In this document: one piece after another, positions 3,913-24,444 of the stretch
Position numbering within the stretch: the first letter of the stretch is position 1
Layout of the letters: each line of letters begins with the position of its first letter
Notes under the pieces: generated by a model
What the model saw: only the letters and a program-made list of their open reading frames with translations
What the model was told of the DNA's origin: nothing
Database searches by the model: none
From: Haloferax volcanii DS2
GTDB taxonomy: Archaea; Halobacteriota; Halobacteria; Halobacteriales; Haloferacaceae
Reading direction: 5' to 3'
Length of the DNA stretch: 32,000 bases
NCBI RefSeq assembly: GCF_000025685.1
Contig: NC_013967.1
Location: 1,920,001 to 1,952,000, forward strand
Program-made: the position numbers and the translations under genes

Positions 3913-6396
3913 ATGACAAAGCTCAAAGATCAAACGCGTGCGATACTTCTCGCCACGCTGATGGTAACTTCCGTCTTTGCGGGAGCCATCGCGTTCACGG
4001 GAAGTGCCGCCGCGGAGCGTGGAAACCTCGACGCTGACAGCGAATCGTTCAACAAGACAATCCAATCCGGCGACCGCGTCTTCCTCGGTGAGGAGATTAG
4101 CACCGACGCCGGCCTCGGTGCTTCGAATCCGCTTCTGACGGGTACCGCGGGCAACTCGGAAGGTGTCTCTCTCGACCTTTCCTCGCCCATCCCGCAGACT
4201 ACGGAGAACCAGCCGCTTGGCACGTACGACGTTGACGGCTCTGGCTCCGCCACGACCCCCAACGTCACGCTGCTGGCGCCGCGCATCACTGACAGCGAAA
4301 TCCTGACGTCCTCCGGTGGCGACGTCACCGGCTCCGCTATCAGCTCCAGCGACGCTGGTAACCTCTACGTCAACGCTGACTACAACTACGAGTCGGCCGA
4401 GAAGGTCGAAGTGACCGTCGAAGACCCGAGCGGAACGGACATCACCAACGAGGTCCTGAGCGGCACGGACACCTTCGTTGACGACGGCTCGATTGGCAGC
4501 ACCTCGTCGACCGGCGGTGGCGTCGGCATCGACATGTCCGATCAGGACGCTGGCGAGTACACGATCATCCTCGAAGGCGCTGAAGACCTCGACTTCGGTG
4601 ACGCTACTGAAACGATGACCCTCACGATCTCGTCGCAGGACGAGATCGGCATCGAACTCGACAGCGAATCCGTGACGCAGGGTACTGACGTTCAGTACAC
4701 CGTCACGAACGGCATCGACGGCAACGAGCACGTTGTCGCTATGGACCTCTCCGACCTCCAGAACGACGCCACGACGGAACAGGCCAAGGAGGTCTTCCGT
4801 AACATCGGCGACACCTCGGAAGTCGGCATCGCGAACAGCAGCGCTACGAACACGAGCGGCTCCTCCACGGGCCCGACCGTTGAGACCGCTGACATCGCGT
4901 ACGCAGTCGTCGAAATCGACGGTGCGAGCGCCGTTGGCGGGATTGAAACGCAGTACCTCGACGACAGCGAAGTTGACCTCGAAGTCTACGACGCTGGCGT
5001 GAGCGCGACTGCAGCAGTCGGCCAGGACGCGACGAACGACATCACGCTCACCATCGAAGAAGGCGGTACGACGCTTTCGAGCCCGACCGGTCAGTACGTC
5101 GTTGGCTCGGAAGTCGACATTAACGGGACGGCTACCAGCTCCGACAGCGTCGCAATCTACGTCCGCGACGATGGCGACTGGCAGCTCCTCGAAATCGGTG
5201 GCGACAACGAAATCAGTGTCGACTCCGACGACACGTTCGAAGAGGAAGACATCGCGCTCTCGGGGCTCTCCGGCGACGGTAGCAGTATCCTGTCGCTGAC
5301 GGGTACCTACCGCATCGGTGTCATCGACGCGTCGGACGCTGACGTTGGCGGCGACGGTTCCGTCGACGACTCGCTTACGACGTCCGAATTCACCAGCGGT
5401 GTGAGCAGCAGTAACTCGATTCGTGTGACCGACCAGGCCCTTACGGGTCAGTTCACCACGATCAACGGTCAGGTCGCTCCTGTCGAGACCGGCACGGTTG
5501 ACATCAACGGTACCGCCTCCGGTGCCAACTCCGTCCTCGTCATCTTCGTCGACGAGCGCGGTAACGTCAACTACCAGGAAGTGAGCGTTGACAGCGACGG
5601 TACCTACGACGAGGACGACATCACTGTCGGCCTCACGCAGGGCCGGGTCACCGCCCACATCCTCTCGGTCGGTCGCGACAGCGCTATCGGTGACGGCTCG
5701 CTGCCGTCCGGCCCGAGCAACGGCGCAACCCTCAACGACCTGACGGGCTACCTCGACACGCTCGACCAAAACAACAACAACGGTGAGCAGATCAACGAGC
5801 TCATCGCCTCCGAAACGGTTGACGAGACGGCGAGCGACGACCTGATCGTCACCGAGACGTTCCGTCTGGCCGAGTCCTCGACGTCCATCGACTCGATCTA
5901 CCCGGACGCCGCTGAAGCGGCTGGCATCAACCCGGTCGCAACCGGTGAAACGATGGTCATCGCTGGCTCGACGAACCTCAAGCCGGACGACAACACCATC
6001 AGCATCGAAGTGACGAATGAAGACGGCACGTCCGTCGCACTCGAAGACACTGACGAGTGGAACAACGACGGCCAGTGGATGGTCGAAATTGACACCACTG
6101 ACTTCGAGACGGGTACGTTCACCGTGGAAGCCGACGACGGCGACAACACGGACACCGTGAACGTCGAAGTCGTCTCCGAGCGTGAGGACACCACGACGTC
6201 CTCCGACAACGCGACGGACACGACGACGACCACGGACGGACCCACGGAAACCACGACGACCGCAGAGCCGACTGAGACCACCGAAGAGCCGACTGAGGAG
6301 ACCACCACGTCCTCCAACACGCCCGGCTTCGGTATCGCAGTCGCTCTCGTCGCACTCGTCGGCGCGGCCCTTCTCGCACTCCGCCGCGAGAACTAA
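3913..6396 (+). CDS. csg: S-layer glycoprotein (cell surface glycoprotein), 827-aa precursor
   Basis: Signal peptide [34 protein letters not shown] followed by [15 protein letters not shown] (sequon at mature Asn13). The protein is highly acidic, with a Thr-rich stalk ([43 protein letters not shown]) and a PGF-CTERM tail ([26 protein letters not shown]). It matches my recollection of H. volcanii Csg, which is also 827 aa. Confidence 0.97.
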
Positions 6397-9915: not shown

Positions 9916-10863
9916 ATGCCCTCCGACACGGAGCCGCCGCGGACCGTACTCATGCTACTGTGTCTCGTTGCGGTCGGTGTGGGACTGACACCACTTGCGA
10001 CCGCAAGCATGGGTGTCGCCTCCAACAACGATGCAGAACCGACACCGCCGGATGCAGACGTTCCGGACCATACGCTGGCTCAAGCCCAACTGTCGTCGAC
10101 CACGGACACGGCGACCGAGACAGCGAACACGACGACCACGCCCACGCCCACGACCACGTCGACACCGTCACAGACACCAAACACGACAGCCACCGCCACG
10201 CGAACTCCCACGCGGACGGCGTCTGCAACACCAAACACGACAGCTACCGCCACACGGACGACTGGTCCGGGGACGGCCGACGCGCCACAGGGGCTTACCG
10301 TTGCAGGGCTTTCGGCACCGGAACGACTTCGACCGACGGAACCGTACACCGTGACCGCGACGGTCCGCAATCCCGCTAACGAGACGCGCTCGGAGCGGAT
10401 TGAATACGTCTTTTCCGGGTCGACGATCACAAACCGAACGGTTCGGTTGGCCGGTGGTGCGTCGCGCGAGGTCCAGTTCGAACTGACGGCGAGCGGGCAG
10501 TTGACCGGCACGGAGACGGTTTCGACGGGGACGTACGTCCACGGCGTTCGTAACGCGTCGGGAGCGGGTATCCCGCGCTACCTGCGTGTGACACCCGACG
10601 TCGACCTCGCGATTGAAGCGTTTCAAGCGCCTGCGACGGCACCCAGCGACCGCGAATTTGTCGTCCTAGCGACCGTCTCGAACCCGGCCGAGACAACGAT
10701 CACGCGTGATGTCGCCTATCGCTTCGCTGGAACGACGATCAGCGAGAAAACCATCACCGTCGGGAGCGGCGAGCAACGGCGGGTCGCATTCGCAGTCACG
10801 ACCGAGCGGGTCGAGGCCGCAGGTGACATCCTCCCCGTCGTGAACGACCGGGCTTCCCGTACC
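9916..10863 (+). pseudogene. 5' fragment of a CARDB-repeat secreted glycoprotein gene interrupted by an IS element
   Basis: The fragment encodes a signal peptide and a Thr-rich linker with the duplicated unit PNTTATATRT. Two CARDB-like repeats follow (TVTATVRNPANETRSERIEYVFSG..., VVLATVSNPAETTITRDVAYRFAG...). Host homology stops after ...NDRASRT (codon ACC at 10861..10863). The remaining 22 codons to the stop at 10929 are antisense to the tnpB 3' end. Confidence 0.8.
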
Positions 10864-11010
10864 GCAGGTGGGATATTTGCTAGTCTACGACACGACCTGT
10901 TCTCGCGGTGCAAAGCAACCGCTCTCTGAGTCGAACAGGTGTACCGATGGCTGTGCCACACAGCCGTTACTCCTATCCTCACCGTGAGGACTCGGAGTTA
11001 TCTTCTGACG
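10840..11010 (-). ncRNA. Predicted TnpB omega-RNA (reRNA): scaffold in the tnpB 3' end plus right end, guide in the flanking host DNA
   Basis: The tnpB stop is at 10887-10885 and the IS right-end boundary lies only 21-24 nt further. Nested perfect stems sit in the last ~100 nt of the gene: CCTGTTC at 10896..10902 pairs with GAACAGG at 10933..10939, enclosing GCGGT..ACCGC. A further hairpin GGCTGTG-CCA-CACAGCC lies at 10949..10965. The 5' end of the scaffold is not determinable by eye. Confidence 0.45.
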
Positions 11011-12135
11011 CATATTCTCCGCCCCGTTGCAATCCGCGTTTCCGACCAACCCACACGACGAGCAGACGTACAACCCACGATGTTTCCGGTTCCCTTTCGT
11101 GTCGTCTCCACACCGTGAACACGTCTTCGAGGTGTCCCACTCGTTCTCTTTCAGCACCTCAACGCCACGAATCTTACCTTTGTATTCGAGGTACTGGTAG
11201 ATGCGGTCGAACGCCCACGTATGCAACTTCTTGTTGCCAGTCTTGCCCCAGTCAGAGTCACGAACGTCTTCAGGCCAGCTCACTGCAAGCGTACCAACAC
11301 CGCGCTCGGCACACTCTGTGATGATAGTGTCCGTCAGTGTATGGTAGAAGTGCGTTTCGCGCTCTGCGAGTTTCCGACGTGCCCACATCAACCTCTCGGA
11401 CGGGCCATTCTCACCTTCTGTGTCGTACTCAGCACGCGTGAAGTAGTGCTTGTCCTGTTTGAGCGAGTTGCCGGGGTAGAGAACGTATTCATCGGAGAAA
11501 GCGACCGTGGCGATGTTCTTGATGCCGAGGTCGATTCCTGCCACCTTGTCGCCTGCTGAGTCGTTGGTTTCGAGACTGACTTTGCAGACGAAGTGCAGTT
11601 CCCATTCGTCGCCGTTCCAGACGGCGCGAACGTTCTGCACCGATTCAACTTCCGAGAGGTCAACGTCCGGGCGAGTCTGGTACTCACAGAGGATGAAATC
11701 CGAGAAATGCTCTTTGAGGTTCGAGCCTTTGCTGAGTCGAACCCGATTGTTCTCGGGGTCGTGTTTGAATCCGTCTGCTTTGAACGTGACCGTGGAACGT
11801 GGCCGTTTGTCGCCGTGTTTTCGGTAGCCGGGCGGATTCGACTTCGAGTCTTTGTGTCGCAGGTCGAACCATGACTGGAAAGCGTCAGAAAGTTCTTCGA
11901 TGACTTTCTGACTGGATTGTGCGTTCAAGTCTTTCCAGCACGCTTGGTTCTTCATGTACGATTTGAGCGAACCTTCGTTTGGGATTTTGCCAACCTCGTC
12001 CCACACGCGGTCTGCTGTCCATCGTGCGACGTTCCAGATTTTCGAGGCAGAATCTCCGAGCGAGTCGAGGCCATCGCAGACCTGTTGGTGGTTCTGGATG
12101 GAACCAACGTAGGTGCGAGTGACCTGAATCGCCAT
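10885..12135 (-). CDS. tnpB: TnpB (IS1341-type OrfB) RNA-guided nuclease, 416 aa
   Basis: RuvC-like motifs are present: VAGIDLGIKNIAT (Asp), an acidic residue in the LAERETHFYH region, and GNADCNGAENM (Asp). A Zn ribbon is formed by CSRCG...CSSCG. The lower-GC, basic composition contrasts with the neighbouring genes. Confidence 0.92.
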   Translation of the reverse strand: MAIQVTRTYVGSIQNHQQVCDGLDSLGDSASKIWNVARWTADRVWDEVGKIPNEGSLKSYMKNQACWKDLNAQSSQKVIEELSDAFQSWFDLRHKDSKSNPPGYRKHGDKRPRSTVTFKADGFKHDPENNRVRLSKGSNLKEHFSDFILCEYQTRPDVDLSEVESVQNVRAVWNGDEWELHFVCKVSLETNDSAGDKVAGIDLGIKNIATVAFSDEYVLYPGNSLKQDKHYFTRAEYDTEGENGPSERLMWARRKLAERETHFYHTLTDTIITECAERGVGTLAVSWPEDVRDSDWGKTGNKKLHTWAFDRIYQYLEYKGKIRGVEVLKENEWDTSKTCSRCGDDTKGNRKHRGLYVCSSCGLVGNADCNGAENMRQKITPSPHGEDRSNGCVAQPSVHLFDSESGCFAPREQVVS

Positions 12136-12226
12136 ACATAGCCTATGTAGGAAGATTTAGTTAATCCTACGGATTGGCGTGGAATATCCAGCCTGCCATC
12201 GACGGTGGACTGCGTAGGAAGTGTCG

Positions 12227-12317
12227 GATTCACTCCCGCCGTAAACGGCGGGATTCTCTCCTCGAAGACAGATTCACTCCCGCCGTAAACGGCGGGATTC
12301 TCTCCTCGAAGACAGAT
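12227..12317. repeat. Exact 44-bp tandem duplication (2.07 copies) inside the IS left end, each unit carrying the hairpin CCCGCCG-TAAA-CGGCGGG
   Basis: Units 12227..12270 and 12271..12314 are identical: GATTCACTCCCGCCGTAAACGGCGGGATTCTCTCCTCGAAGACA. A third unit starts with GAT and then diverges. Confidence 0.9.
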
Positions 12318-12341
12318 AGCCTTATCCAGCGAGGTCGGACC

Positions 12342-12884
12342 TACGACCACAGTATCGAGACCGCTGGTGGGGCAACCGTCAGCGATGCGATTCGACTGCG
12401 AAGCGAACCGAGTGCACGCGCGGCGGCGCTCACGACACGGGACGTGCAACTCCTGAGCGACCTTCGGGAAGATACCCGATACACGGTCGCGGTTACGGTC
12501 AGGAACGTCGGAACAACTGCTTTCGACGGGCAGTTCGTCTACCGCCTCAACGGAACCGCCGTTGCGACGCAGAGTCGTAACATCCCGTCTGGCCAACAGC
12601 GGACCATCAGCTTCGAAATCGCCTACGCCGACATCGAGCGGGCGGCTCAGCCCCTTTCGACGCGCACGTCGACACAGTCACTCACCGTGGGGAACGCGTC
12701 GCTGGCCAGCGAGGATGTTACGGTCCACGGACGCATCGCGGACACGGACAGGCGCACAGAGTCTCCGACGCCTCGACAGGCGGCCAACTTCACCGACGAC
12801 TCGGAGGAAGACCCCGAAGCGTCTCGTGCGACGTGCGAACGAGGATTTTTCAGTCGATGTGGCGAAAAACTATTGACCAGATGA
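12342..12884 (+). pseudogene. 3' fragment of the IS-interrupted CARDB-repeat glycoprotein gene
   Basis: The frame continues YDHSIETAGGATVSDAIRLRSEP... into a third CARDB-like repeat (DTRYTVAVTVRNVGTTAFDGQFVYRLNG...RTISFEI). The upstream part of track ORF 12174..12884 (12174..12341) is IS left-end sequence, not host coding sequence. Confidence 0.75.
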
Positions 12885-13889: not shown

Positions 13890-16142
13890 TTACGAGGACC
13901 GACTGGCAGCCACGCGCTCGGCAATCGAGTCCAAGAGGACGAGCGTCGGCGGGAGCGTCGCCAACGACGCGATGAGCGTCAGAAACACGACGCCGACGGT
14001 CAGGAAGCCGAACCCGCTGAGAATCGGGAACGGCGACAACACCAGCGCCGAAAAGCCGAACACGGTCGTCATTCCCGACACACTAATCGCCTTTCCGACC
14101 CGAGTGGCCGCGGTCTGAACGGCATCGAGTCGACTGACGCCCGCCCGCTGTTTCTCTTGGTAGTATCGGTCCATCACGATGATGGTGTACTCCGCACCGA
14201 TTCCGACTGTCATCGCCCCGAGACTCGCACCGAGTGGCGAAACCGGGATATCCAGCAGATACATGTAGATGTTCTGCCAGCCGATGACGAACACCATCGG
14301 GATGAGCGGCGCAACAGCCTTCACCAGATTGCGGTAGTACACGAGGAGCAGGATAAACACGAACAGGACGCCCAGTCCGGTCGTCACGTTCCGTGAGTTG
14401 ATCTGCTCCACGATAGAGGGGGTCGCAATCGCGGCGGTCCCCGTGATTTCCGCCGTCACTCCGGGTGGGGGGCTACTGTACGCGATTGACTCGCGCGTGT
14501 TCTCCAAGAACGAGAGGGCCTGCTGAGTGGTCATATCCTGTGCGGAGTAGACCATGATGTGCGCACGCCCGTCGTTGTAATACTGGAGTTTCTGTCTCTC
14601 GGGGACGGTTTCGAGCACGCGTTTGACGCCGCTTTCAGTCTGGGGGAGTTGGCCCCCGTTGTACTGTTTAACCAGCGTCGCTGGCGAATCGACGCCTTGT
14701 ACCAGCGGGGTCTGTGTCGCGATGTGCTCGAAGTCGAGCATCCACTGCAACGTTGCCGGATGTTTGAGATTCGTCCCGGTCACGAGCACGTCGTAACTCG
14801 TGCTCGAACCGCCGCCGGCAACAGAGCGGAACTGCTGGAGGTCGGTGTAGGCGGGGAGGTCCTGCGGGATGAACTCTTCCGTGTCCGCGAGCGTGTCGAG
14901 CGACCCGCCGGCCTGAAAGCCTACGAGAGCAATCAGCAGTGCGATACTGAGGACGAGCACCGGATGACTCGCGAGTATCCGCGCCGAACGACCGAGCAGT
15001 TCCCCGACGAGGCCGATGCGATCCGAGTCGCCTTGGTCTTGAGACTGCGTCGTTGTGGCCGTTGTCGGGGCGTCGTCTTCGTCCGGCGTCTCGTCTTCGG
15101 CGTCGCCCCGCCGGCGGACCCAGAGGGTGAGCAGCGGGAGGAGAACGAGTATCCCCGCGATGAAGGTGAGAAGCACGCCGAAGATCGAGGTCTGGGCGAA
15201 CCAGATAATCGACGGCGACGACGTCGACACCCACGTCGCTCCGAACCCCAACGCGGCGGCGAGCATAGCGACGAAGACCGGTGGACCGATTCCGCCAAGC
15301 GCTTGCGGAAGCGCTTCGCGTGGCGGATGGTTTTCGAGTTCTTCCTCGTACCGCTCGTGGAACTGCACGGAGTAGTCGATGCCCAGCCCAATCAAAATCG
15401 GGAAGACCGCGCTGGTCATCGTCGAATTGGGGACACCGGCGTATCCAATCGCTCCGAACGTGTAGATGACGCCGACGAAGACGGCGACAATCGGGAGGAG
15501 ACGAAGGCGGACGCCGCGGAACAGGAAGAACAGCGCCACGACCATGAGCCCGATTGCGAGGCCGAGTAACTGCTGGGTGCTCTGCTGAATGAGCGTCGAG
15601 AGCTGTGCAGAGAACGCGGCACTGCCAGTGACGGTTACCGTCGTCCCGGAGGGGAATTCCGCCCAGTCAGTCGCTTCAACGGCCTGCGTGTAGATGGGGC
15701 GTTCCTCCGTCTGAGAGAGCCCCGTATCGAAGACGATCTGGACGACCGTGTAGTCCGGCGACCCGATAACGCTTCGAATCTTCGCCTCCGAATCGGGGAT
15801 TCGGCCGTACTCCTGGCGGACCTGATCGGCCGGACTCGTTACGGTATGGACGTTCGGCTTCGTCGACATCTGCTGGTCGACGCGGTCAATCGCGTGGAGC
15901 GTCTGCGGCTCCGTAATATCTCCCCGTACGAGAACGGCGATGCTGCCCCGGTCAAACGACTCCGTAAACGCGTCGAACGTTGGGTTGTCCGCAACGAATG
16001 CAGCGTCGCCAGTAACGCTGGTAATCTGCGCAGCACCGCCGAACGCGGTGAAGATAAGCAGGACTGCGAGAAGCAGCACTGCGACCGGTCGCTGTTGGAC
16101 CTGTCTTCCGACCGCGCTGAACAGCTGGCGTAGCTTATCCAT
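13890..16142 (-). CDS. RND-superfamily (MMPL-type) exporter, 750 aa
   Basis: The protein has two-fold internal symmetry. Each half has one TM helix, a large extracytoplasmic loop and a bundle of five TM helices. The halves are joined by an acidic cytoplasmic linker (RRRGDAEDETPDEDDAPTT...). It starts 28 nt downstream of the COG1361 gene on the same strand. Confidence 0.85.
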   Translation of the reverse strand: MDKLRQLFSAVGRQVQQRPVAVLLLAVLLIFTAFGGAAQITSVTGDAAFVADNPTFDAFTESFDRGSIAVLVRGDITEPQTLHAIDRVDQQMSTKPNVHTVTSPADQVRQEYGRIPDSEAKIRSVIGSPDYTVVQIVFDTGLSQTEERPIYTQAVEATDWAEFPSGTTVTVTGSAAFSAQLSTLIQQSTQQLLGLAIGLMVVALFFLFRGVRLRLLPIVAVFVGVIYTFGAIGYAGVPNSTMTSAVFPILIGLGIDYSVQFHERYEEELENHPPREALPQALGGIGPPVFVAMLAAALGFGATWVSTSSPSIIWFAQTSIFGVLLTFIAGILVLLPLLTLWVRRRGDAEDETPDEDDAPTTATTTQSQDQGDSDRIGLVGELLGRSARILASHPVLVLSIALLIALVGFQAGGSLDTLADTEEFIPQDLPAYTDLQQFRSVAGGGSSTSYDVLVTGTNLKHPATLQWMLDFEHIATQTPLVQGVDSPATLVKQYNGGQLPQTESGVKRVLETVPERQKLQYYNDGRAHIMVYSAQDMTTQQALSFLENTRESIAYSSPPPGVTAEITGTAAIATPSIVEQINSRNVTTGLGVLFVFILLLVYYRNLVKAVAPLIPMVFVIGWQNIYMYLLDIPVSPLGASLGAMTVGIGAEYTIIVMDRYYQEKQRAGVSRLDAVQTAATRVGKAISVSGMTTVFGFSALVLSPFPILSGFGFLTVGVVFLTLIASLATLPPTLVLLDSIAERVAASRSS

Positions 16143-16170
16143 GGTTACTCCTTGTCCCGTCCATGGTCCG

Positions 16171-17793
16171 TCATCGACGGCGGTAGATGACGGCTATCGC
16201 TCCGATTCCGAGGAGTGCGACGACTCCGAGGACCGACATCGGAACCGGGAGTCCACCGCTCGACGGGGAGAGCGCAATGCCGACCGGCAGGCCGTCAGTG
16301 TACCTCGTGTCGCCGTCAGCCTCGTCGTACCGAACCTCGACCGAGGCGTCGTAAGCCTTGACAACCGCACTCGACCCGGCACTGACGGTGAACGTCGCCG
16401 TTTTGGTTTCTCCCGGCTGCATCTCTCCGAGATACGCGCCGTCGTCGGACGTCGAAATCGGGTCGCTCACGAAGAGCTTGGCGTTCGTCGCCGACACCGG
16501 TTCTTCGCCGTTGTACTGCACCGTGACGTCCACCGTGTCGGTCGCGCCCGGCGAGACGCTCGTGTTGACGCCGACGACCGTGAACGGGTCCTGTTCGGGT
16601 TCGATTGCTATCGACTTCCGAATCGGCGACGTCGTTCTCACGTCACCGTCTTGGTTCTCGTATTCGACGACGAACGGGAACATGTTCGTCCCCGGTTCAG
16701 CGCCCGCCGGAATCGAGACGGTAAACGAGACCGGCTTCGACTCGCCGGGGGCGAGGTCTCCGATAGCGGACTCGCCGTTCGTCGGCGTCACGAGCGCCGT
16801 GTCACCGATTTGGACTGCGAGGTTGTTCGCGGTGCCGCTGCCCGTGTTGACGACCTGTGCGTTGATTTTCGCTTCACCTTCGTCGACCCTGAATCGCTCC
16901 GTCTCGATGTCGCGTATCTCGAAGCTTCGCTCGGGGTTCACCGCGATGCCGGTCGTCAGCGTGTCCGACGTTTCGGTGACGCCGTTCTGGTTCTGGTACG
17001 ACACGGCCAGGTTGACGGGGTACTCACCTGCCTGGGTCTCCGCCGCCGCACCGACCTGGACCGAGAGGTTCGTCCGCTCGCCCGGTTCGAGGGTCGGGAC
17101 GTACAGGCTCGTCGACGACTGCGGATTCTGCATCGTGCCGAAGAAAATCGTCGGCGACTGCGTCGTGAGCTGGACCGACGACGACGTTGCGGTTCGCGTG
17201 CCCGTATTTTCGAGCGCGAACGAGAGCTGGCCGGTGTCGCCGGCGAATACGGCGTTGTTACCTTCGCTCACGACCTCGAACTGCGGGCGGTCTTCGACTT
17301 CGATCGTCACCGACTTCTCTCTCGTGACGGTCCGCCACGTGTATTCCGGTCCGTCGACGCTGCCGTAGGTGACCATCCGGACGTACTTGTACTGCACCTC
17401 GACGGGTATCTCGTAGGTGCCCGGCTCGGCGTTTCCGAGTTCGATGTTGAAATCAAACCGAGCGGTCCCCGAGTCGGGGATGGTGCCCGCGATAACGGTT
17501 CCCGTCTTCACGTCGATTGGTGCATCGATCTGTTCTTCGAGAATCTCCATCTCCACGCTCTGTGCGGTCTGGACTTCCTGTTCGTACTGTGCCGGCCCAC
17601 CCTGTTCGAGCCGACCGTTGTTGCTTGCGACAACCGACAGCGTCGCGGCCTCGCTCGACCGGTAGGTGTTATCCGACACGCTGAGCGAGAGCTCCGGGTT
17701 CCCGTACACCGAACTCTCGGCCGACACGGGGACTGCGGCAATCGACGTTACGACTAGTACACAGAGGAGTATCGCTGATTTGTTCCGAACCAT
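16171..17793 (-). CDS. COG1361/CARDB-type surface (S-layer-domain) protein, 540 aa, with a C-terminal TM anchor
   Basis: Signal peptide MVRNKSAILLCVLVVTSIAAVPVSAES, followed by repeated beta-sandwich units (NTGTRTATSSSVQL, VVNTGSGTANNLAVQI). The C-terminal anchor is LPVPMSVLGVVALLGIGAIAVIYRRR. It is a paralogue of the partial CDS at 1..1572. Confidence 0.88.
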   Translation of the reverse strand: MVRNKSAILLCVLVVTSIAAVPVSAESSVYGNPELSLSVSDNTYRSSEAATLSVVASNNGRLEQGGPAQYEQEVQTAQSVEMEILEEQIDAPIDVKTGTVIAGTIPDSGTARFDFNIELGNAEPGTYEIPVEVQYKYVRMVTYGSVDGPEYTWRTVTREKSVTIEVEDRPQFEVVSEGNNAVFAGDTGQLSFALENTGTRTATSSSVQLTTQSPTIFFGTMQNPQSSTSLYVPTLEPGERTNLSVQVGAAAETQAGEYPVNLAVSYQNQNGVTETSDTLTTGIAVNPERSFEIRDIETERFRVDEGEAKINAQVVNTGSGTANNLAVQIGDTALVTPTNGESAIGDLAPGESKPVSFTVSIPAGAEPGTNMFPFVVEYENQDGDVRTTSPIRKSIAIEPEQDPFTVVGVNTSVSPGATDTVDVTVQYNGEEPVSATNAKLFVSDPISTSDDGAYLGEMQPGETKTATFTVSAGSSAVVKAYDASVEVRYDEADGDTRYTDGLPVGIALSPSSGGLPVPMSVLGVVALLGIGAIAVIYRRR

Positions 17794-18049: not shown

Positions 18050-21000
18050 GTGGTGGGTAACAATCTGATTTCGTGGGCGGTGGTGCTCGTTGTCGTCTGT
18101 ACGCTTTTTACGCCCGTGTCGAGTGCCCCGGCCGCGGCAGCGCCGCCTGCGGTCACGTTCGTCGAGACGCCAATCCAGTCGGATACGACGTGGACCGCGG
18201 ATGAGGGTCCGTATCGACTCATCCGGAGCGTCGCTATCGAGCCCGGTGCGACGCTCACGATTCGCCCCGGTACGGAAGTGCAACTGGCGGAGGGGGTTTC
18301 GCTCACCGTCCGGGGCTCGTTGCAAGCCGAGGGCACTGCCGAACGGCCGGTTCGAATCACGCAGAGCGCGCCGTCGGGGCGGAATCTCAGATGGGAGACG
18401 ATTCGCTACAACGGCACCGAATCGTCGACGCTCTCGCTTCGACACACGACGCTCCACGGCGGTCACAGCGGGATTACGACGACGAGCGGAGCCGGCTCCG
18501 TCACAATCGTCGACTCGCGCTTGGAGAACTTCTCCGTGGCGGGTATCTCCGTCAACGGCACGGCGATGCCCCCGGTCGAACTCACGCGGTCGACGCTGAC
18601 CGACATCGGCGGCCACGCCGTCCGCGCGAGCCCCTCAACCGGGGCCGTGGAGGAGGTCGAACTGAACACGACGGACCGACGACGGAACCAGACGGTACGG
18701 CACACGCTCGGACTCGCCCTCGGCGTCGGCGTCTCGATGGAGACGATTCGGCTCCGGTATCCCACCGAGCGGTCGGTACGCGACGTCGACGCCGAGACGC
18801 TCGACCGAATCGGCCTCGACACCGACAACGATGGAGACATCGACCGGTCGCTCGACGACGACGTTTCGGACGTCTCGGTCAGCGGGCGTCGCGTCGAGAT
18901 TTCGCTGTCGCGGTCGGTGTACGTGTCGAGTCGGGACCGGCTCATCGTCGAGTACGGCGGGGTCGTGAACCCACGGACCCGAGGCGTGTACCCCATCGGC
19001 GTCAGCGTGCTCGAACACCGGACGCCGCAGCTATCGGACGGTGTCCACGCGATGTACGTCGTCGGCGAGGAGACGACGCCGTTCGCGTACACGCGGCCGA
19101 CCGACCTCACACGCGTCCGAGGTATCACCGTCAGTCAGTCCGTGTTCGACGGGATTGATGGTGCGGGAGTGTTCGCCGCCGCGGATATCGTCACCGGCGT
19201 CAGAATCAGCGAGAGTCGGTTCACCGACGTACGGGGCGACGGCGTGGCGATACGGGCCGCCCAAAGTGAAAGCAGTTTCCGCGACAACCGCCTGCGCGCC
19301 GGCGATGCGGGGATTCACGTCGAAACCCGAACGCAGACGACGCTGGTCGCGAGCGAAAATCGGATTTCGGAGTCGGAAACCGGGATTCGCGTTCGACAGT
19401 CCGAGCGGCGCGTCCGCGGCGTCACACGGGTGACGCTCCGCGGAAACGAGTTGGTCGCCAACGACCGCAACGGACTCGAAATCCAGTCCGAAACGAGCGA
19501 GGGCGAACTGCTGCTCGCGAACAACACGATGAGCGAAAACGGGGGCGACGGGGTCGCGCTCTCGAACTGGGCCATCAAGGACAGCCGCGTCAGCGGCAAC
19601 CAACTGTTCGACAACGGCGACGACGGCATCGCAATCGACAGCCACGTGGTGCGGAACCTCACGCTGTCCCGGAACCGAATCGCGGACAACGGCGGCGACG
19701 GACTCGACGTGTCCGTCCGCGCGTTGGTTCGAGATGTCGCTGCGACCGACAACACGATTTCCGACAACCGGGGCCACGCGCTCGCGGTGCGCTCCGACCT
19801 GCTCGTCCATCGCGTTGCTGTCGCGGGGAACGACCTCACCAACAACGGCGGGGCTGGGCTCCTCGTTTCGACCCCGCTCACGCACAACGGGCGGCTCAGC
19901 GTGACGGACAACGTGCTCGTTGCGAACGGTTACGGACTCGTGGCTCGCGGGACGCTGAATGCGACGGTGCAGCGCAACGACATCGTGTTCAACACGAACT
20001 CGCACGTCCGACCGCCACCGCTTCCCGGCGTCGACCCCGGTACGGGAGTCTACATCGCGGAAGGGCCGCGCGGTGCGGTCCTCGACCAGAGCGACCCGGA
20101 CGCCCCGTTTGCTGAGCTCGTTGCGAACCCGCGGCTCCGGCAACAGATCGAGATTACGCGGCTCTGGGGCGATACGGTCGCCGTCCTTCGCACCGACGGG
20201 GTGAGCCACGTCCGCTCGACGACCGAGGGTGCGGTCGACGTCCGCCGCGTCGACGGCACGCTCCCGACGGGTGTCGAACTCTCGTACGCCAACTCGACCC
20301 CCGACCGCTTCCGGGTCGCCGACAACGACATCTACGGTCACGACACCGGGATGGAGATAAATATCACGCAGCTCGTCACGGCGAACACGACGGCACGAAT
20401 CGTCACCGACTCGATACAGACGGTCAACGCGGAGTCGAACTACTGGGGTGCCGCGAGCGGACCCTACCACGCGTCCATCCTGCCGGAAGGCGAGGGCGAC
20501 GAGGTCACGATTACCAACGGCTGGGTCGACTTCATTCCGGTCGCGGACGCTCCGACCGGCCAGCAGTACCGACGGCCGACTGCCCGCCTCGACGCGCCGT
20601 CGGCGGCCGAGCCGGGCAGTCGAATCGACGTTTCGGGGGCCGATAGCACAGCCGGGACCGGGTCGGTCACCACGTATCATTTCGTCGTTAACGGGACGAA
20701 CCACACGACGCGGGACAGCGCCGACCTCCGCCTCCAGATGCCGAACGAGACGCTCTCGGTCTCACTCGCTGTCGAAGACGACCTCGGAATCGACAGCAAC
20801 GCCTCCGCAACGGCGCGCGTCCGGGCGGCGTCATCCGGCGACGCGGCGGTGAGCGCTCCGGGGAGTCAGTCGGCCGCGTCCGGCCCCGAACAGGGGGTGT
20901 CGTCCGGGGCTGGACTCCGTTCTGCGTGGGGTCTCCTCGGCGGTGGCTGTCTCCTGGCTGCGCTCTTCTTCGGCGGCTACGGGATGGTCCGGACGGTCCG

Positions 21001-21178
21001 AAACCAGCCGGTCCCGATGCGCGGGGTGTTCGTGCAGGCGCTCGCGGCGTTCGGTATTCTGGTCTGGCTCGTCGCCGGCTTCGTCGGCTCGACGCAGCTC
21101 GTCCTCGTCGGCGGTGCCGCCGGGGTCGTTTGGGGCGGGCTCACCCTCGTCGCGTACCTTCTCGCCACTCGCCTCTGA
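18050..21178 (+). CDS. Right-handed parallel beta-helix (PbH1/NosD-like) surface protein with a PKD-like domain and three C-terminal TM helices, 1042 aa
   Basis: Consecutive ~22-aa PbH1 repeats are present: NNTMSENGGDGVALS, GNQLFDNGDDGIAID, RNRIADNGGDGLDVS, DNTISDNRGHALAVR, GNDLTNNGGAGLLVS. An NYWG..SGP motif is present. The PKD-like segment is PTARLDAPSAAEPGSRIDVSGADS...TYHFVVNG. The hydrophobic C-terminus is LLGGGCLLAALFFGGYG, ALAAFGILVWLVAGFVG, VGGAAGVVWGGLTLVAYLLA. The start is GTG at 18050 or 18053, with no in-frame ATG nearby. Confidence 0.85.
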   Translation: MVGNNLISWAVVLVVVCTLFTPVSSAPAAAAPPAVTFVETPIQSDTTWTADEGPYRLIRSVAIEPGATLTIRPGTEVQLAEGVSLTVRGSLQAEGTAERPVRITQSAPSGRNLRWETIRYNGTESSTLSLRHTTLHGGHSGITTTSGAGSVTIVDSRLENFSVAGISVNGTAMPPVELTRSTLTDIGGHAVRASPSTGAVEEVELNTTDRRRNQTVRHTLGLALGVGVSMETIRLRYPTERSVRDVDAETLDRIGLDTDNDGDIDRSLDDDVSDVSVSGRRVEISLSRSVYVSSRDRLIVEYGGVVNPRTRGVYPIGVSVLEHRTPQLSDGVHAMYVVGEETTPFAYTRPTDLTRVRGITVSQSVFDGIDGAGVFAAADIVTGVRISESRFTDVRGDGVAIRAAQSESSFRDNRLRAGDAGIHVETRTQTTLVASENRISESETGIRVRQSERRVRGVTRVTLRGNELVANDRNGLEIQSETSEGELLLANNTMSENGGDGVALSNWAIKDSRVSGNQLFDNGDDGIAIDSHVVRNLTLSRNRIADNGGDGLDVSVRALVRDVAATDNTISDNRGHALAVRSDLLVHRVAVAGNDLTNNGGAGLLVSTPLTHNGRLSVTDNVLVANGYGLVARGTLNATVQRNDIVFNTNSHVRPPPLPGVDPGTGVYIAEGPRGAVLDQSDPDAPFAELVANPRLRQQIEITRLWGDTVAVLRTDGVSHVRSTTEGAVDVRRVDGTLPTGVELSYANSTPDRFRVADNDIYGHDTGMEINITQLVTANTTARIVTDSIQTVNAESNYWGAASGPYHASILPEGEGDEVTITNGWVDFIPVADAPTGQQYRRPTARLDAPSAAEPGSRIDVSGADSTAGTGSVTTYHFVVNGTNHTTRDSADLRLQMPNETLSVSLAVEDDLGIDSNASATARVRAASSGDAAVSAPGSQSAASGPEQGVSSGAGLRSAWGLLGGGCLLAALFFGGYGMVRTVRNQPVPMRGVFVQALAAFGILVWLVAGFVGSTQLVLVGGAAGVVWGGLTLVAYLLATRL

Positions 21179-21435
21179 GGCGTCTTCGAGACCGACACAC
21201 GGGTGTCAACCTTGTTCGACTGCGGCGGTATGTATGACGGATTTGGGTCTAAGTAGTGGAAAAACTCATTTATTCTTGGCTCAGTGAACTGTCCTGTGGA
21301 AATGGAGCAATCCAACCTGACAGTCCCACTGACCTACCGGCCCTCCCAGAATCAGACACCGAGTACACGACCGGTTCGGATTCGAGAACGACCCGACTGC
21401 GGCGGTGTATCGAGTGTGACATCCGGGGCCGACGT

Positions 21436-22626
21436 ATGACAGCTAAACGCGGCGCTCGACTCGCTGTCGTGGCGACAGTCGCGCTGGTTGCCGTTACGAG
21501 CGTACTCGTCGCGAGCCTCCCGGCGGTGAGCGCACAGTCGGGCCAAATCGTGGTCAACTCGACGACGGTCGAGCCGCGCGAGCCGTACGTCGGTGAATTG
21601 GTCACGGTCAGGGCGACCGTTTCGAACTTCGAGAGTAGCTCCGGCGGCGCCGACCTCAAAGAGGTCACGCTCCGGTCGGGCGGCGGCATCGTCGCTGAAG
21701 CGAGCAACCTCGGAACGCTCGGACCGGGTGGGTCCGTCGACGTGCCGCTGTCCACCACGTTCACGAGCGCAGGGGAAAAACAGCTCAAAGTCCACGTCTC
21801 CGGCCGCCACGAAAACGGGAACGTCATCAACGTCGAGTACCCGGTCATCGTGACGGTCGAAGAACGAGACGTGCGGGCTGGCCTCTCGGTGGGCGAACAG
21901 ACGAACGACACCGTCAACGTGGAGTTGACCAACTACGGGAACACGAACCTCTCGAACGTCGAAATCACCGCGTCAGTAAACGGTTCCCAGATTGCCCAGC
22001 GGTACACCGCGAATCTCGACCCGGACGCGAACCGCTCTGTCGTGTTCGACACCGCCGATATGAGCGACCGGGTCGTGCTGTTCACTGCGACGTACACCGT
22101 CGACGGAGAAACGTTCACGACCACGCTGTCGGAGGAGATAGAGGACGACTCGGTCCCCGGAGAGATTCGACTGACGAGCATCGAGACCACGCAAAGAGCC
22201 GGCTCCGTGACGATACAAGGCGACGCCGCAAACGTCGGGAACACGGACGCGAGCTCGGTCTTGCTGACGGTCAAGGAGACGGCAAACGTCACCCACGGTT
22301 CGCCGTCCGGCGGCTACTTCGTCGGGCGCGTGGAGGCGAGCGAGTTCGCCACGTTCGACGTGACCGCAGAGCTCAGCGGCGAGCCGACGACCGTTCCCAT
22401 CGAGGTGTCCTACATCGTCGACGGCGACCGGGTGACGACGACACAGGAGGTGCCACTCGATTCCGGTGGTGCCGCGCCTGTCGCCGCCGGTTCCCAGTCC
22501 GAGCAGGGTCCGGGCTCCAATGAATCGCAGTCGGGCGGTTCCCAGCTTCCGTTACCCGTTATCGGGGGCGTGCTGGTGGTCGTCGTGCTCGGTGGGGTCG
22601 GCATCTATCGCTGGCGCCAGCACTAG
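21436..22626 (+). CDS. CARDB/COG1361-like triple beta-sandwich protein with a C-terminal TM anchor, 396 aa
   Basis: Track ORF 21256..22626 trimmed to the ATG at 21436 (MTAKRGARLAVVATVALVAVTSVLVASLPAVSAQS). It has three repeats (VTVRATVSNFES, VNVELTNYGNTNLSNVEI, VTIQGDAANVGNTDASSV). The C-terminus is LPLPVIGGVLVVVVLGGVGIYRWRQH. Its stop at 22624..22626 lies 1 nt before the next ATG. Confidence 0.8.
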   Translation: MTAKRGARLAVVATVALVAVTSVLVASLPAVSAQSGQIVVNSTTVEPREPYVGELVTVRATVSNFESSSGGADLKEVTLRSGGGIVAEASNLGTLGPGGSVDVPLSTTFTSAGEKQLKVHVSGRHENGNVINVEYPVIVTVEERDVRAGLSVGEQTNDTVNVELTNYGNTNLSNVEITASVNGSQIAQRYTANLDPDANRSVVFDTADMSDRVVLFTATYTVDGETFTTTLSEEIEDDSVPGEIRLTSIETTQRAGSVTIQGDAANVGNTDASSVLLTVKETANVTHGSPSGGYFVGRVEASEFATFDVTAELSGEPTTVPIEVSYIVDGDRVTTTQEVPLDSGGAAPVAAGSQSEQGPGSNESQSGGSQLPLPVIGGVLVVVVLGGVGIYRWRQH

Positions 22627-22627
22627 C

Positions 22628-23305
22628 ATGAGTGTCATTGAACTCGCTGACGTCGTGAAACGGTATCAGAACGGCGAGGAGGTCATCGCCGCGCTCGACC
22701 ACGTCGACTTTCGCGCCGACCGCGGTGAGATGGTGACCATCATCGGCCCGTCTGGGTCCGGGAAAAGTACCATGCTGAACATGATCGGGCTGCTCGACAC
22801 GCCGACAGAGGGGACGGTCCATCTCGACGGCCGTAACGTGACCGACTTCTCTGAGGACGAACTGACAGAAGAGCGTCGGTCCGGTATCGGGTTCGTGTTT
22901 CAGGACTTCCACCTGCTGCCGATGCTGACCGCGACCGAGAACGTCGAACTCCCCTCGATGTGGGACACCTCGGTTGACCGGCACGACCGCGCCCAGGACC
23001 TCCTCCAGCGGGTGGGGCTCGGTGACCGACTCAATCACACTCCCGACCAGCTCTCGGGCGGGCAGCGACAGCGCGTCGCCATCGCGCGGGCGCTCATCAA
23101 CGAGCCGGATATCCTCCTCGCCGACGAGCCGACGGGGAACCTCGACCAAGACACCGGCGAGACGATTCTGACCGAGCTGACTCGGTTGAAAGAAGACGAG
23201 AACGTCGCGATTGTCGCGGTCACCCACGACGAACAGATGCTCGAATACACCGACAGCACCGTCCGACTCGTCGATGGCGTCGTGACGGAGGTCTCCGGAC
23301 GATGA
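22628..23305 (+). CDS. ABC transporter ATP-binding protein, MacB/LolD-type (225 aa)
   Basis: Track ORF 22466..23305 trimmed to the ATG at 22628 ([13 protein letters not shown]). Walker A is GPSGSGKST, the signature motif is [15 protein letters not shown] and Walker B is [12 protein letters not shown]. Confidence 0.93.
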
Positions 23306-24444
23306 GCGTCGTTGATTTCCTCTGGCGCTTCCCCAGCGTCCAGATGGCGTGGCGGAACCTCGGCCGGAACAAACTGCGGACGATGTTGGCCGCGCTCGGC
23401 ATCATCATCGGCGTCGTCTCGATCTGTTCGCTCGGAATGGCGACGGCTGCGATTCAACAGCAGGCGACGTCACAGTTGGGAAGTATCGGCAACGAGGTGT
23501 CGATAACGTCCGGTCAGGACAGCGACACGGACGGGGTGACCGACGACCAGGTCGATACGATACGGAATCTGGTGACCGACGCGGAGGTCGTCCCCCAGAA
23601 GACGAACTCGACGACGATCTCTTCACGAAACGGACGGGAGGTGAGGGTAAGCGTCACCGGGGTGACGAACGCGGCAGCGCTATACAACCTCACGTCCGGC
23701 GAAGCACCCTCCCGGCTGTTGAGCGGCGCGCTCCTCAGCAACAGCACCGCCACGACACTCGGGATTGAGGAGGGCGACCCCGTCGAGTACGACGGCCAAC
23801 TGTACCGCGTACAGGGGCTCATCGAGGAAGAAAACGCGTTCGGCTTCGGCGGCGGTGAACTGGTGTTACCCGAGTCCGGCCTCTCCGACCAGAACCACTA
23901 CAACACCGTGACGGTCGTCGCCGAGGATAGCGCGACCGCGATAGAGATCGGTGGGGAGCTGGATCAGTACTTCAACACCGAAGACGAAGAAGAACTCAGC
24001 ATCAACACGTTCGGGAACGCGGGCCAAGTCGGCGGGTTCTTGGAGACGCTTTCGCTCGCCTTGTTGGCCATCGGCGGCATCTCGCTCGTCGTCGCGAGCG
24101 TCGCCATCCTCAACGTGATGCTGATGAGCACGGTCGAACGCCGCGGGGAAATCGGCGTCCTCCGCGCCGTCGGCATCCGCCGCTCCGAAGTGCTGCGGAT
24201 GATTCTGACGGAGGCCGCCCTGATGGGCACACTCGGCGGGCTCGTCGGGGCGACCCTTTCGCTTGCGGCGGGGCTCGTCATCTTCCAGATGATTACTGGA
24301 GACCCGCTCGGAGCGCTCCAGTGGAGCAGTGCGCAGTATCTGGTGTACGGGTTCGGGTTCGCCGTCGTTGCGAGCGTCCTCAGCGGGATTTACCCCGCGT
24401 GGAAAGCGGCGAACGACCGGCCGGTCGACGCATTGAGAGGCTGA
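23302..24444 (+). CDS. ABC transporter permease, MacB-like extracytoplasmic domain plus FtsX domain (380 aa)
   Basis: The N-terminal TM helix ([23 protein letters not shown]) is followed by a ~200-aa extracytoplasmic domain. Three C-terminal TM helices carry the FtsX-type motif [20 protein letters not shown]. An ATGA start/stop overlap with the ATPase gene lies at 23302..23305. Confidence 0.9.

Follow-up and report, generated by a model that had tools for sequence, protein, structure and literature searches.

A beta-sandwich protein encoded beside an HAE3-family RND permease in Haloferax volcanii: a conserved archaeal gene pair and candidate two-component exporter

Here we describe two adjacent genes in a 32,000-nucleotide stretch of the genome of Haloferax volcanii DS2 (NC_013967.1, positions 1,920,001 to 1,952,000; hereafter the window, in whose own positions all coordinates are given). 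The upstream gene, HVO_2080, encodes a protein of stacked beta-sandwich domains, and the downstream gene a permease of the RND superfamily. We consider it likely that the two products form a two-component exporter of the HAE3 family with a hydrophobic or amphiphilic cargo, in which HVO_2080 would be a dedicated accessory subunit. The adjacency of the two genes is far beyond chance and, moreover, the pairing is conserved in at least four orders or classes of Halobacteriota and in more distant metagenomic lineages. For haloarchaea the association is already published (PMC11349517, 2024), and its detection here is a rediscovery.

Both genes are read from the minus strand, with HVO_2080 as the upstream member:

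13890..16142, minus strand: RND permease of the HAE3 family, 750 amino acids (aa), exact match to D4GUM7, presumably HVO_2079
16143..16170, minus strand: intergenic spacer of 28 nucleotides (nt), read directly from the sequence
16148-16153, minus strand: Shine-Dalgarno-like AAGGAG, 5 nt before the ATG of the RND gene
16171..17793, minus strand: HVO_2080, RND-transporter-associated protein, 540 aa, from the open reading frame (ORF) and its translation, exact match to D4GUM8

The tag HVO_2079 is given to D4GUM7 because D4GUM9 is a pectin-lyase-domain protein that appears as HVO_2081 in the glycoproteome paper. A preliminary description of this locus had given the same layout, 540 and 750 aa separated by 28 nt, and its coordinates are exact; it had also read the genes as a single unit, and their common direction and the synteny set out below agree with a conserved functional module. 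Across orthologous loci in which both starts are reliable the intergenic gap is 1 to 78 nt, and in methanogen loci the genes of pump and partner overlap by 1 or 4 nt, while larger apparent overlaps come from over-extended ORF starts.

The pairing was followed through a pump-anchored sample of 80 loci, one genome per species, collected with an alignment of ten HAE3 proteins, and every ORF of these loci was searched with a profile of the haloarchaeal partner. In the roughly 1 Mb of RND-anchored sequence, all 93 matches to the partner profile adjoin an RND gene. The partner lies directly upstream of the RND gene in 25 of 25 haloarchaeal loci, a count that includes three loci fetched by exact look-up; three seeming exceptions proved to be ORF-calling or frameshift artefacts. 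Among methanogens and their relatives an adjacent partner accompanies 42 of 59 RND genes. It is found upstream in Methanomicrobiales, in Methanonatronarchaeales and in one unassigned metagenome-assembled genome (MAG), and the order is inverted in Methanosarcinales, where most loci have a tandem of two partner paralogues behind the RND gene and the others a single one; the first partner of the tandem starts 1-4 nt inside the RND stop region. These tandem partners (loci L026-L083 of our collection, e.g., L035:6091-10545) are minimal forms of about 355-390 aa each, consisting of a distal domain D1, a membrane-proximal domain D4 and a transmembrane (TM) helix, all defined below. Their arrangement suggests a hetero-oligomeric accessory complex.

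In a neighbour-joining tree of the pumps, gene arrangement tracks the RND clades: the partner is upstream in Halobacteria, in a deep clade of plasmid-borne paralogues and in three distant metagenomic lineages, a single switch to the downstream position falls in Methanosarcinales, and losses are scattered within Methanomicrobiales. The adjacency reaches unassigned lineages whose RND protein is only 24-27% identical. Four HAE3 representatives with 24-30% identity to the pump were sampled, and three of them have an upstream gene of the partner family (in one case a 346-aa form that Pfam does not recognise), the fourth being solitary. The taxonomically unassigned loci L084-L087 have archaeal-looking neighbours, e.g., genes for aIF2-gamma and TrmB. 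From the partner side, a scan of metagenomes found the RND gene directly adjacent in 57 of 80 loci, 10 loci being cut by contig ends, and a homology search with a broad partner profile gave only Halobacteria among the matches listed. Identities to the H. volcanii pair, partner against pump, correlate with r=0.96 (n=92), a value that is confounded by phylogeny and includes paralogues. Conservation outside close relatives, on which the preliminary description had made its proposal depend, is thereby confirmed for Halobacteria, Methanosarcinales, Methanomicrobiales, Methanonatronarchaeales and unassigned lineages, and it survives the switch of gene order.

Fusions of partner and pump were also looked for, and none was found among nine long HAE3-like representatives (947-1376 aa), which carry no CARDB/NEW3 domain. 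One metagenomic ORF of 1165 aa (L171:68-3562) does join an RND gene and the first partner in frame; it was rejected as a fusion, since the two genes are separate in relatives with 96-97% identity and frameshifts disrupt the second partner of that contig, and it probably reflects a sequencing artefact or a pseudogene. In a Haloferacaceae MAG (L005:1637-8238), a second RND paralogue of 847 aa lies directly upstream of the partner-RND pair.

H. volcanii itself harbors a published example of this pairing, the operon HVO_A0466/HVO_A0467 on pHV4, which encodes an RND transporter (RND-T)-associated protein and an RND permease; HVO_A0466 has immunoglobulin (Ig) folds and a C-terminal TM domain, and the authors picture it as a long, fibre-like molecule with a possible interaction in the pseudo-periplasm (PMC11349517). 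The same study, which covers Halobacteria, reports the association in 21 haloarchaeal genomes and notes that two paralogues of HVO_A0466 in H. volcanii also adjoin RND permeases, its supplementary table giving 3/3 for both families in this species. HVO_2080 displays several features of the RND-T-associated proteins, namely homology, an RND-adjacent gene, four beta-sandwich domains and a C-terminal TM segment. The homology to HVO_A0466 was judged through its plasmid-borne equivalent in Haloferax lucentense, with which HVO_2080 shares 32% identity at 99% coverage (E=4e-67); this partner gene has a divergent TetR gene and overlaps the MMPL gene by one base, as in the published HVO_A0466/A0467 pair. 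A further paralogous pair resides on pHS3 of Halobacterium salinarum.

The pHV4 pair and the pair studied here are thus paralogous and share the organism, the two-gene layout with the partner upstream, the four Ig-like folds and the C-terminal TM anchor, whereas the HVO_A0467-type pump has about 830 aa against the 750 aa of HVO_2079. They also differ in what is known of them: HVO_A0467 is induced 44-fold by iron starvation and belongs to a probable siderophore exporter, schizokinen having been proposed from docking only (PMC11349517), and nothing comparable is known for HVO_2079/2080. The statement in the preliminary description that the system is uncharacterised consequently holds for function and substrate, but not for the genetic association, which the haloarchaeal study had reported (PMC11349517). 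In the literature on COG1361, HAE3, CARDB with RND and the HVO tags we found no functional study of the pair. A microarray study of 2012 lists HVO_2079, then called a "conserved protein", as changed 12.8-fold in a deletion mutant of a small RNA (hts10); this hints at regulated expression of the gene to which the tag presumably belongs (13890-16142, minus strand).

The permease is, by profile, a bona fide member of the HAE3 family of the RND superfamily (TIGR00921 / TC 2.A.6.7), with a predicted export function. With 430.8 bits, its match to TIGR00921 exceeds the curated cut-off of 351.9, and it spans residues 16-736, corresponding to profile positions 2-733 of 733. Pfam recognises two MMPL halves, and hydropathy fits about 12 TM helices (6+6, internally duplicated) and two extracytoplasmic loops at about 39-192 and 408-584, roughly 150-175 aa; the scan is crude and misses two helices, those with charged motifs. 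Profile, MMPL halves and hydropathy agree with the 12-TM RND exporter with two large loops that had been described from the open reading frame. The nearest solved relatives by sequence are MmpL4/5 and HpnN; the permease also matches PF12349 and, marginally, SecD/SecF profiles (E-values 1e-4 to 2e-3). Among 88 sequences, the TM4 motif is conserved at D256 (86/88), Y257 (84/88) and R264 (88/88), and that of TM10 at E651 (82/88, plus 5 Asp), Y652 (81/88) and R659 (88/88). From the established knowledge of MmpL3-type proteins (MmpL3/HpnN), we take the acidic-Tyr pairs of these two helices to be proton-relay residues; the permease keeps both pairs, D256-Y257 and E651-Y652, and on this ground is probably active and driven by the proton-motive force.

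The partners constitute a distinct family, with an architecture in which a signal peptide is followed by D1, by 0 to about 5 spacer domains, by D4 and by the TM helix. The parts of HVO_2080 itself are:

17719..17793, minus strand: signal peptide, residues 1-25, MVRNKSAILLCVLVVTSIAAVPVSA, hydropathy peak at residues 7-25, hydrophobic N-terminus kept in orthologues, putative cleavage site
17281..17715, minus strand: D1, distal beta-sandwich, residues 27-171, conserved from haloarchaea to methanogens, predicted local distance difference test (pLDDT) of 95 in a D1-only model
16600..17280, minus strand: D2-D3, spacer beta-sandwich domains, residues 172-398, lineage-dependent in number, 0 to about 5
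16183..16599, minus strand: D4 (residues 399-~510) and TM helix (519-537), conserved membrane-proximal module with a putative docking role

An AlphaFold2 model of HVO_2080, made with 30 orthologues (pLDDT 88), has four beta-sandwich domains between two helices (residues 5-18 and 519-539), and hydropathy puts the C-terminal TM helix at 519-537, followed by an RRR tail. The anatomy first proposed, i.e., a signal peptide, a beta-sandwich stack and a single C-terminal TM segment, is recovered by both approaches. Many RefSeq entries give a protein of 518 aa that starts 22 codons downstream and loses the signal peptide; the 540-aa start is supported because the orthologues keep a hydrophobic N-terminus. 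The Pfam matches of the protein are to CARDB/NEW3.

Conservation is concentrated at the two ends of the molecule. Methanogen partners align to profile positions ~29-212, the D1 region, and the region best conserved across all partners corresponds to positions ~395-541, that is D4 and the TM helix, with P445, L455, G456, G461, F468, K479, Y481 and Y489 invariant in the D4 region. Between them, the number of spacer domains is 0 in Methanosarcinales, 1 in Methanomicrobiales and 2 in typical Halobacteria, and reaches three to five in partner forms of 658-901 aa, in which D3-like repeats are expanded; the whole stalk therefore ranges among lineages from 2 to about 7 domains. In Foldseek searches, D1 behaves as a generic Ig/MG-like sandwich (template-modelling score about 0.5 or below) and the whole chain has generic Ig/MG-like matches only. 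None of the 50 matches listed in either search is a fold of the membrane fusion protein (MFP) adaptors, and neither Pfam nor NCBIfam matches any of the MFP domains (lipoyl, alpha-hairpin, beta-barrel, membrane-proximal) in HVO_2080. The protein contains three N-X-S/T sequons; the glycoproteome paper makes no mention of it in its main text. As an S-layer protein it was rejected: the Pfam scan finds no PGF-CTERM match in it, unlike csg at 3913..6396, and "COG1361 S-layer family protein" is an annotation label only.

In the arrangement that we favour, the pump would draw its cargo, hydrophobic or amphiphilic, from the membrane or the outer leaflet and export it at the expense of the proton-motive force. 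The C-terminal TM helix and D4 of HVO_2080 may dock onto the pump, as MmpS does onto MmpL, so that the stalk would hold the conserved D1 above it at a lineage-specific height; D1 could then either stabilise or assemble the complex, or take over the cargo in the pseudo-periplasm once the pump has released it. The pair is probably expressed inducibly; many lineages encode a TrmB-, MarR- or TetR-type regulator directly upstream. Among 53 upstream neighbours of the module, 18 are TrmB-type and 5 TetR-type regulators. In Methanosarcinales a TrmB-type regulator usually stands upstream in divergent orientation. Adjacent regulators of these types are typical of inducible efflux systems.

The closest analogue and mechanistic precedent for such an arrangement would be the mycobacterial MmpS-MmpL systems, in particular MmpS5-MmpL5. 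In MmpS4/5-MmpL4/5 of M. tuberculosis, as here, the gene of an MmpL-type pump is directly preceded in its operon by that of an accessory protein, which is small and crosses the membrane once. The extracytoplasmic domain of MmpS is likewise a beta-sandwich, and the repressor Rv0678 is MarR-like. The MmpS5-MmpL5 operon is controlled by this repressor, and the TM helix of MmpS5 packs on TMH8 of MmpL5 (PMC12122801). MmpS has an N-terminal anchor and one domain, whereas HVO_2080 has a cleavable signal peptide, a C-terminal anchor and four domains (2 to about 7 in the family); the coiled-coil stalk of MmpL5 is made by the pump itself, and HAE3 pumps, by contrast, have nothing but short loops. HVO_2080 shows neither sequence similarity to MmpS nor a match to the MmpS family of Pfam, and MmpS is thus an analogue, the archaeal protein not being a member of that family.

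Several observations weigh against a dedicated exporter subunit. Seventeen of the 59 methanogen RND genes, mostly in Methanoregula, Methanolinea and Methanospirillum, have no adjacent partner, so that the pump is apparently able to function unaided or with a partner from another locus. Their loop lengths are identical to those of partner-bearing pumps, and the comparison of the two groups gave no docking signature, S103 being the sole discriminating position. Conversely, twelve loci of the partner-side scan, from one clade and two or three contexts, have no RND gene within 4 kb, and a 901-aa form in Halorussus stands outside any RND operon. Furthermore, the generic Ig/MG-like folds of D1 and of the whole chain make a ligand-binding function unreadable from structure, and in the window no regulator is adjacent to the HVO_2080/HVO_2079 pair. 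Altogether, the linkage of partner and pump is strong and ancient, but it is not absolute in either direction.

The solo clade (L095-L108, e.g., L097:3992-5041) consists of genes of about 350 aa, 62-69% identical to the RND-linked partner of L087, whose neighbours are helicase, CxxCxxCC, sulfite-reductase-like or HAD-hydrolase genes. The Halorussus lipolyticus form (L088:5001-12706) has about 7 domains, and the nearest MMPL gene lies 3.7 kb away in convergent orientation.

Other explanations of the pairing have to be considered. The preliminary description saw in the beta-sandwich stack an adaptor or conduit from the pump to the S-layer, replacing MFP and outer-membrane channel, by which the cargo would pass through the pseudo-periplasm and out through the S-layer. 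HVO_2080 is indeed membrane-anchored, elongated and extracytoplasmic, with a conserved distal D1, and its paralogue was described in similar terms, as a fibre with possible interactions in the pseudo-periplasm (PMC11349517). We regard this proposal as unlikely: the protein resembles MFP adaptors neither in sequence nor in fold, a single chain of Ig-like domains offers no lumen, a stalk that varies from 2 to about 7 domains is hard to fit to a fixed distance between membrane and S-layer, the linkage to csg is not conserved, and pumps without a partner exist. A more ambitious reading, which we also hold to be improbable, would make the HVO_2080-type protein an obligate structural subunit, ancestral to Halobacteriota, by which a small HAE3 pump becomes an export device that spans the envelope. 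The pump would be held fast by D4 and the TM helix, and an oligomer of stalks, tuned in length to the envelope of each lineage, would carry a hydrophobic cargo (lipid, siderophore or pigment) from the exit of the pump to D1 and thence to or through the S-layer. If true, this would be an archaeal solution analogous, and unrelated, to the tunnels that bacteria build from MFP and outer membrane factor (OMF) and to the coiled-coil stalk of MmpL5.

It is also conceivable that D1 is a hydrophobic-ligand-binding sandwich that takes cargo from the pump or delivers cargo to it, the stalk providing reach only. Beta-sandwich lipid carriers do partner RND-superfamily proteins, as NPC2 does with NPC1, an RND-superfamily protein with a sterol-sensing-type domain, and the match of the permease to PF12349 adds to the likeness. 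D1 is conserved independently of the spacers, and the pump is nearest to lipid and siderophore exporters (MmpL4/5, HpnN, BstA). Yet NPC2 is a soluble, single-domain protein of the ML fold, the direction of transport and the phylogenetic context differ, and the fold search with D1 gave only its generic Ig/MG matches, with no ML/NPC2-like or lipocalin-like one, so that we give this hand-off a slim chance. The roles could, alternatively, be reversed: RND relatives such as SecD and SecF assist protein export, and the beta-sandwich protein might be a client, a surface protein or adhesin that needs a SecDF-like or biogenesis-type RND protein for its translocation, anchoring or display. The weak SecD/SecF matches of the permease, the adhesin-like expansion of spacer domains and the existence of solo partner genes would fit such a relationship. 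Nonetheless, the pump is a genuine HAE3/MMPL-type protein with a score well beyond the cut-off, beside which the SecDF matches are marginal; the most conserved parts of the partner, the C-terminal TM helix and D4, better fit a stable subunit than a client; and ligand-type regulators are frequent neighbours. This reversal strikes us as very unlikely. As for a surface-protein gene lying by chance beside a transporter in a variable island of cell-surface genes, secreted and CARDB-type genes do abound in the window, which also contains an insertion sequence (IS) element; however, an adjacency kept across classes, through a switch of gene order, in paralogous pairs and in unrelated contexts effectively refutes this view by synteny and leaves it next to no probability.

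Two cues of the preliminary description have to be corrected. Its location beside csg had been taken as support for the proposal, and this proximity is incidental, as the pair stands in unrelated contexts in Halobacterium salinarum, between an alpha/beta-hydrolase gene and panB, and in Haloquadratum walsbyi, behind a TetR gene; indeed, the upstream neighbours of the pair vary widely among Halobacteria. It had also suggested that COG1361-type proteins are generic partners of exporters, which fails as stated. The haloarchaeal and broad profiles of the RND-linked partner, which recover methanogen partners with E-values of 1e-21 to 1e-75, have a single match in the window, HVO_2080, even with the threshold relaxed to E<=10. 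At the same threshold they miss HVO_2082 (21256..22626), which belongs to a separate family with its own operon of the ATP-binding cassette (ABC)/FtsX type.

In the window this operon (21256-24444, plus strand) comprises the HVO_2082-like CARDB protein, then an ABC ATPase and then a MacB_PCD/FtsX permease; HVO_2082 has hydrophobic segments at both its N- and C-terminus. All three loci sampled, each from a different genus, repeat this association of an HVO_2082 homologue, an ABC ATPase and an FtsX/MacB-type permease; they lie on plasmids of Halobaculum, Haloferax mediterranei and Haloarcula, and their genes overlap at the stop and start codons. At the level of profiles, then, there are two parallel, dedicated and unrelated beta-sandwich accessory families and not one generic adaptor, a weaker yet still interesting version of the original generalisation.

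The divergent neighbour of the pair, at 18050-21178 (plus strand), encodes a right-handed beta-helix protein of 1042 aa (NosD/pectin-lyase-like) that begins with a signal peptide and has several TM segments at its C-terminus; it corresponds to HVO_2081, a reported AglB-dependent glycoprotein, and adjoins the pair in Haloferax only. On the other side, between 9916 and 12884, a CARDB-type ORF of 337 aa (9916-10929) and an ORF of 236 aa (12174-12884) flank a TnpB/IS605-OrfB gene (10885-12135, minus strand), as if an IS element had interrupted a gene for a secreted glycoprotein. The neighbouring HVO_2076 is called "nonfunctional" in the glycoproteome paper, and its link to these ORFs is putative.

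To our knowledge, archaeal RND pumps are essentially uncharacterised, and what is at stake is how hydrophobic molecules are discarded or delivered by a cell that has one membrane and an S-layer. The tripartite systems of Gram-negative bacteria, of the AcrA-AcrB-TolC type, likewise combine an RND pump with a membrane-tethered extracytoplasmic partner, the two sharing an operon that a TetR-type repressor often controls; there, however, the pump is of the HAE1 family and works with an outer membrane and a channel, whereas the pump described here is of HAE3 type, with much smaller periplasmic domains and neither outer membrane nor channel. To the published association our analysis adds phylogenetic depth (methanogens, the switch of gene order, tandem duplication and losses), a domain map in which D1 and D4 with the TM helix are the conserved parts, the frequent link to TrmB/TetR-type regulators, and the correction of the cues drawn from csg proximity and from a generic COG1361 role. 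The methanogen extension, the map of domains and the link to regulators are incremental steps that demonstrate no new mechanism. The system is nonetheless widespread, and H. volcanii, with its three paralogous pairs and its genetic tractability, allows direct tests of it. If conserved and dedicated, the Ig-stalk subunit would represent a third independent type of extracytoplasmic RND partner, beside the MFP/OMF tunnels and MmpS.

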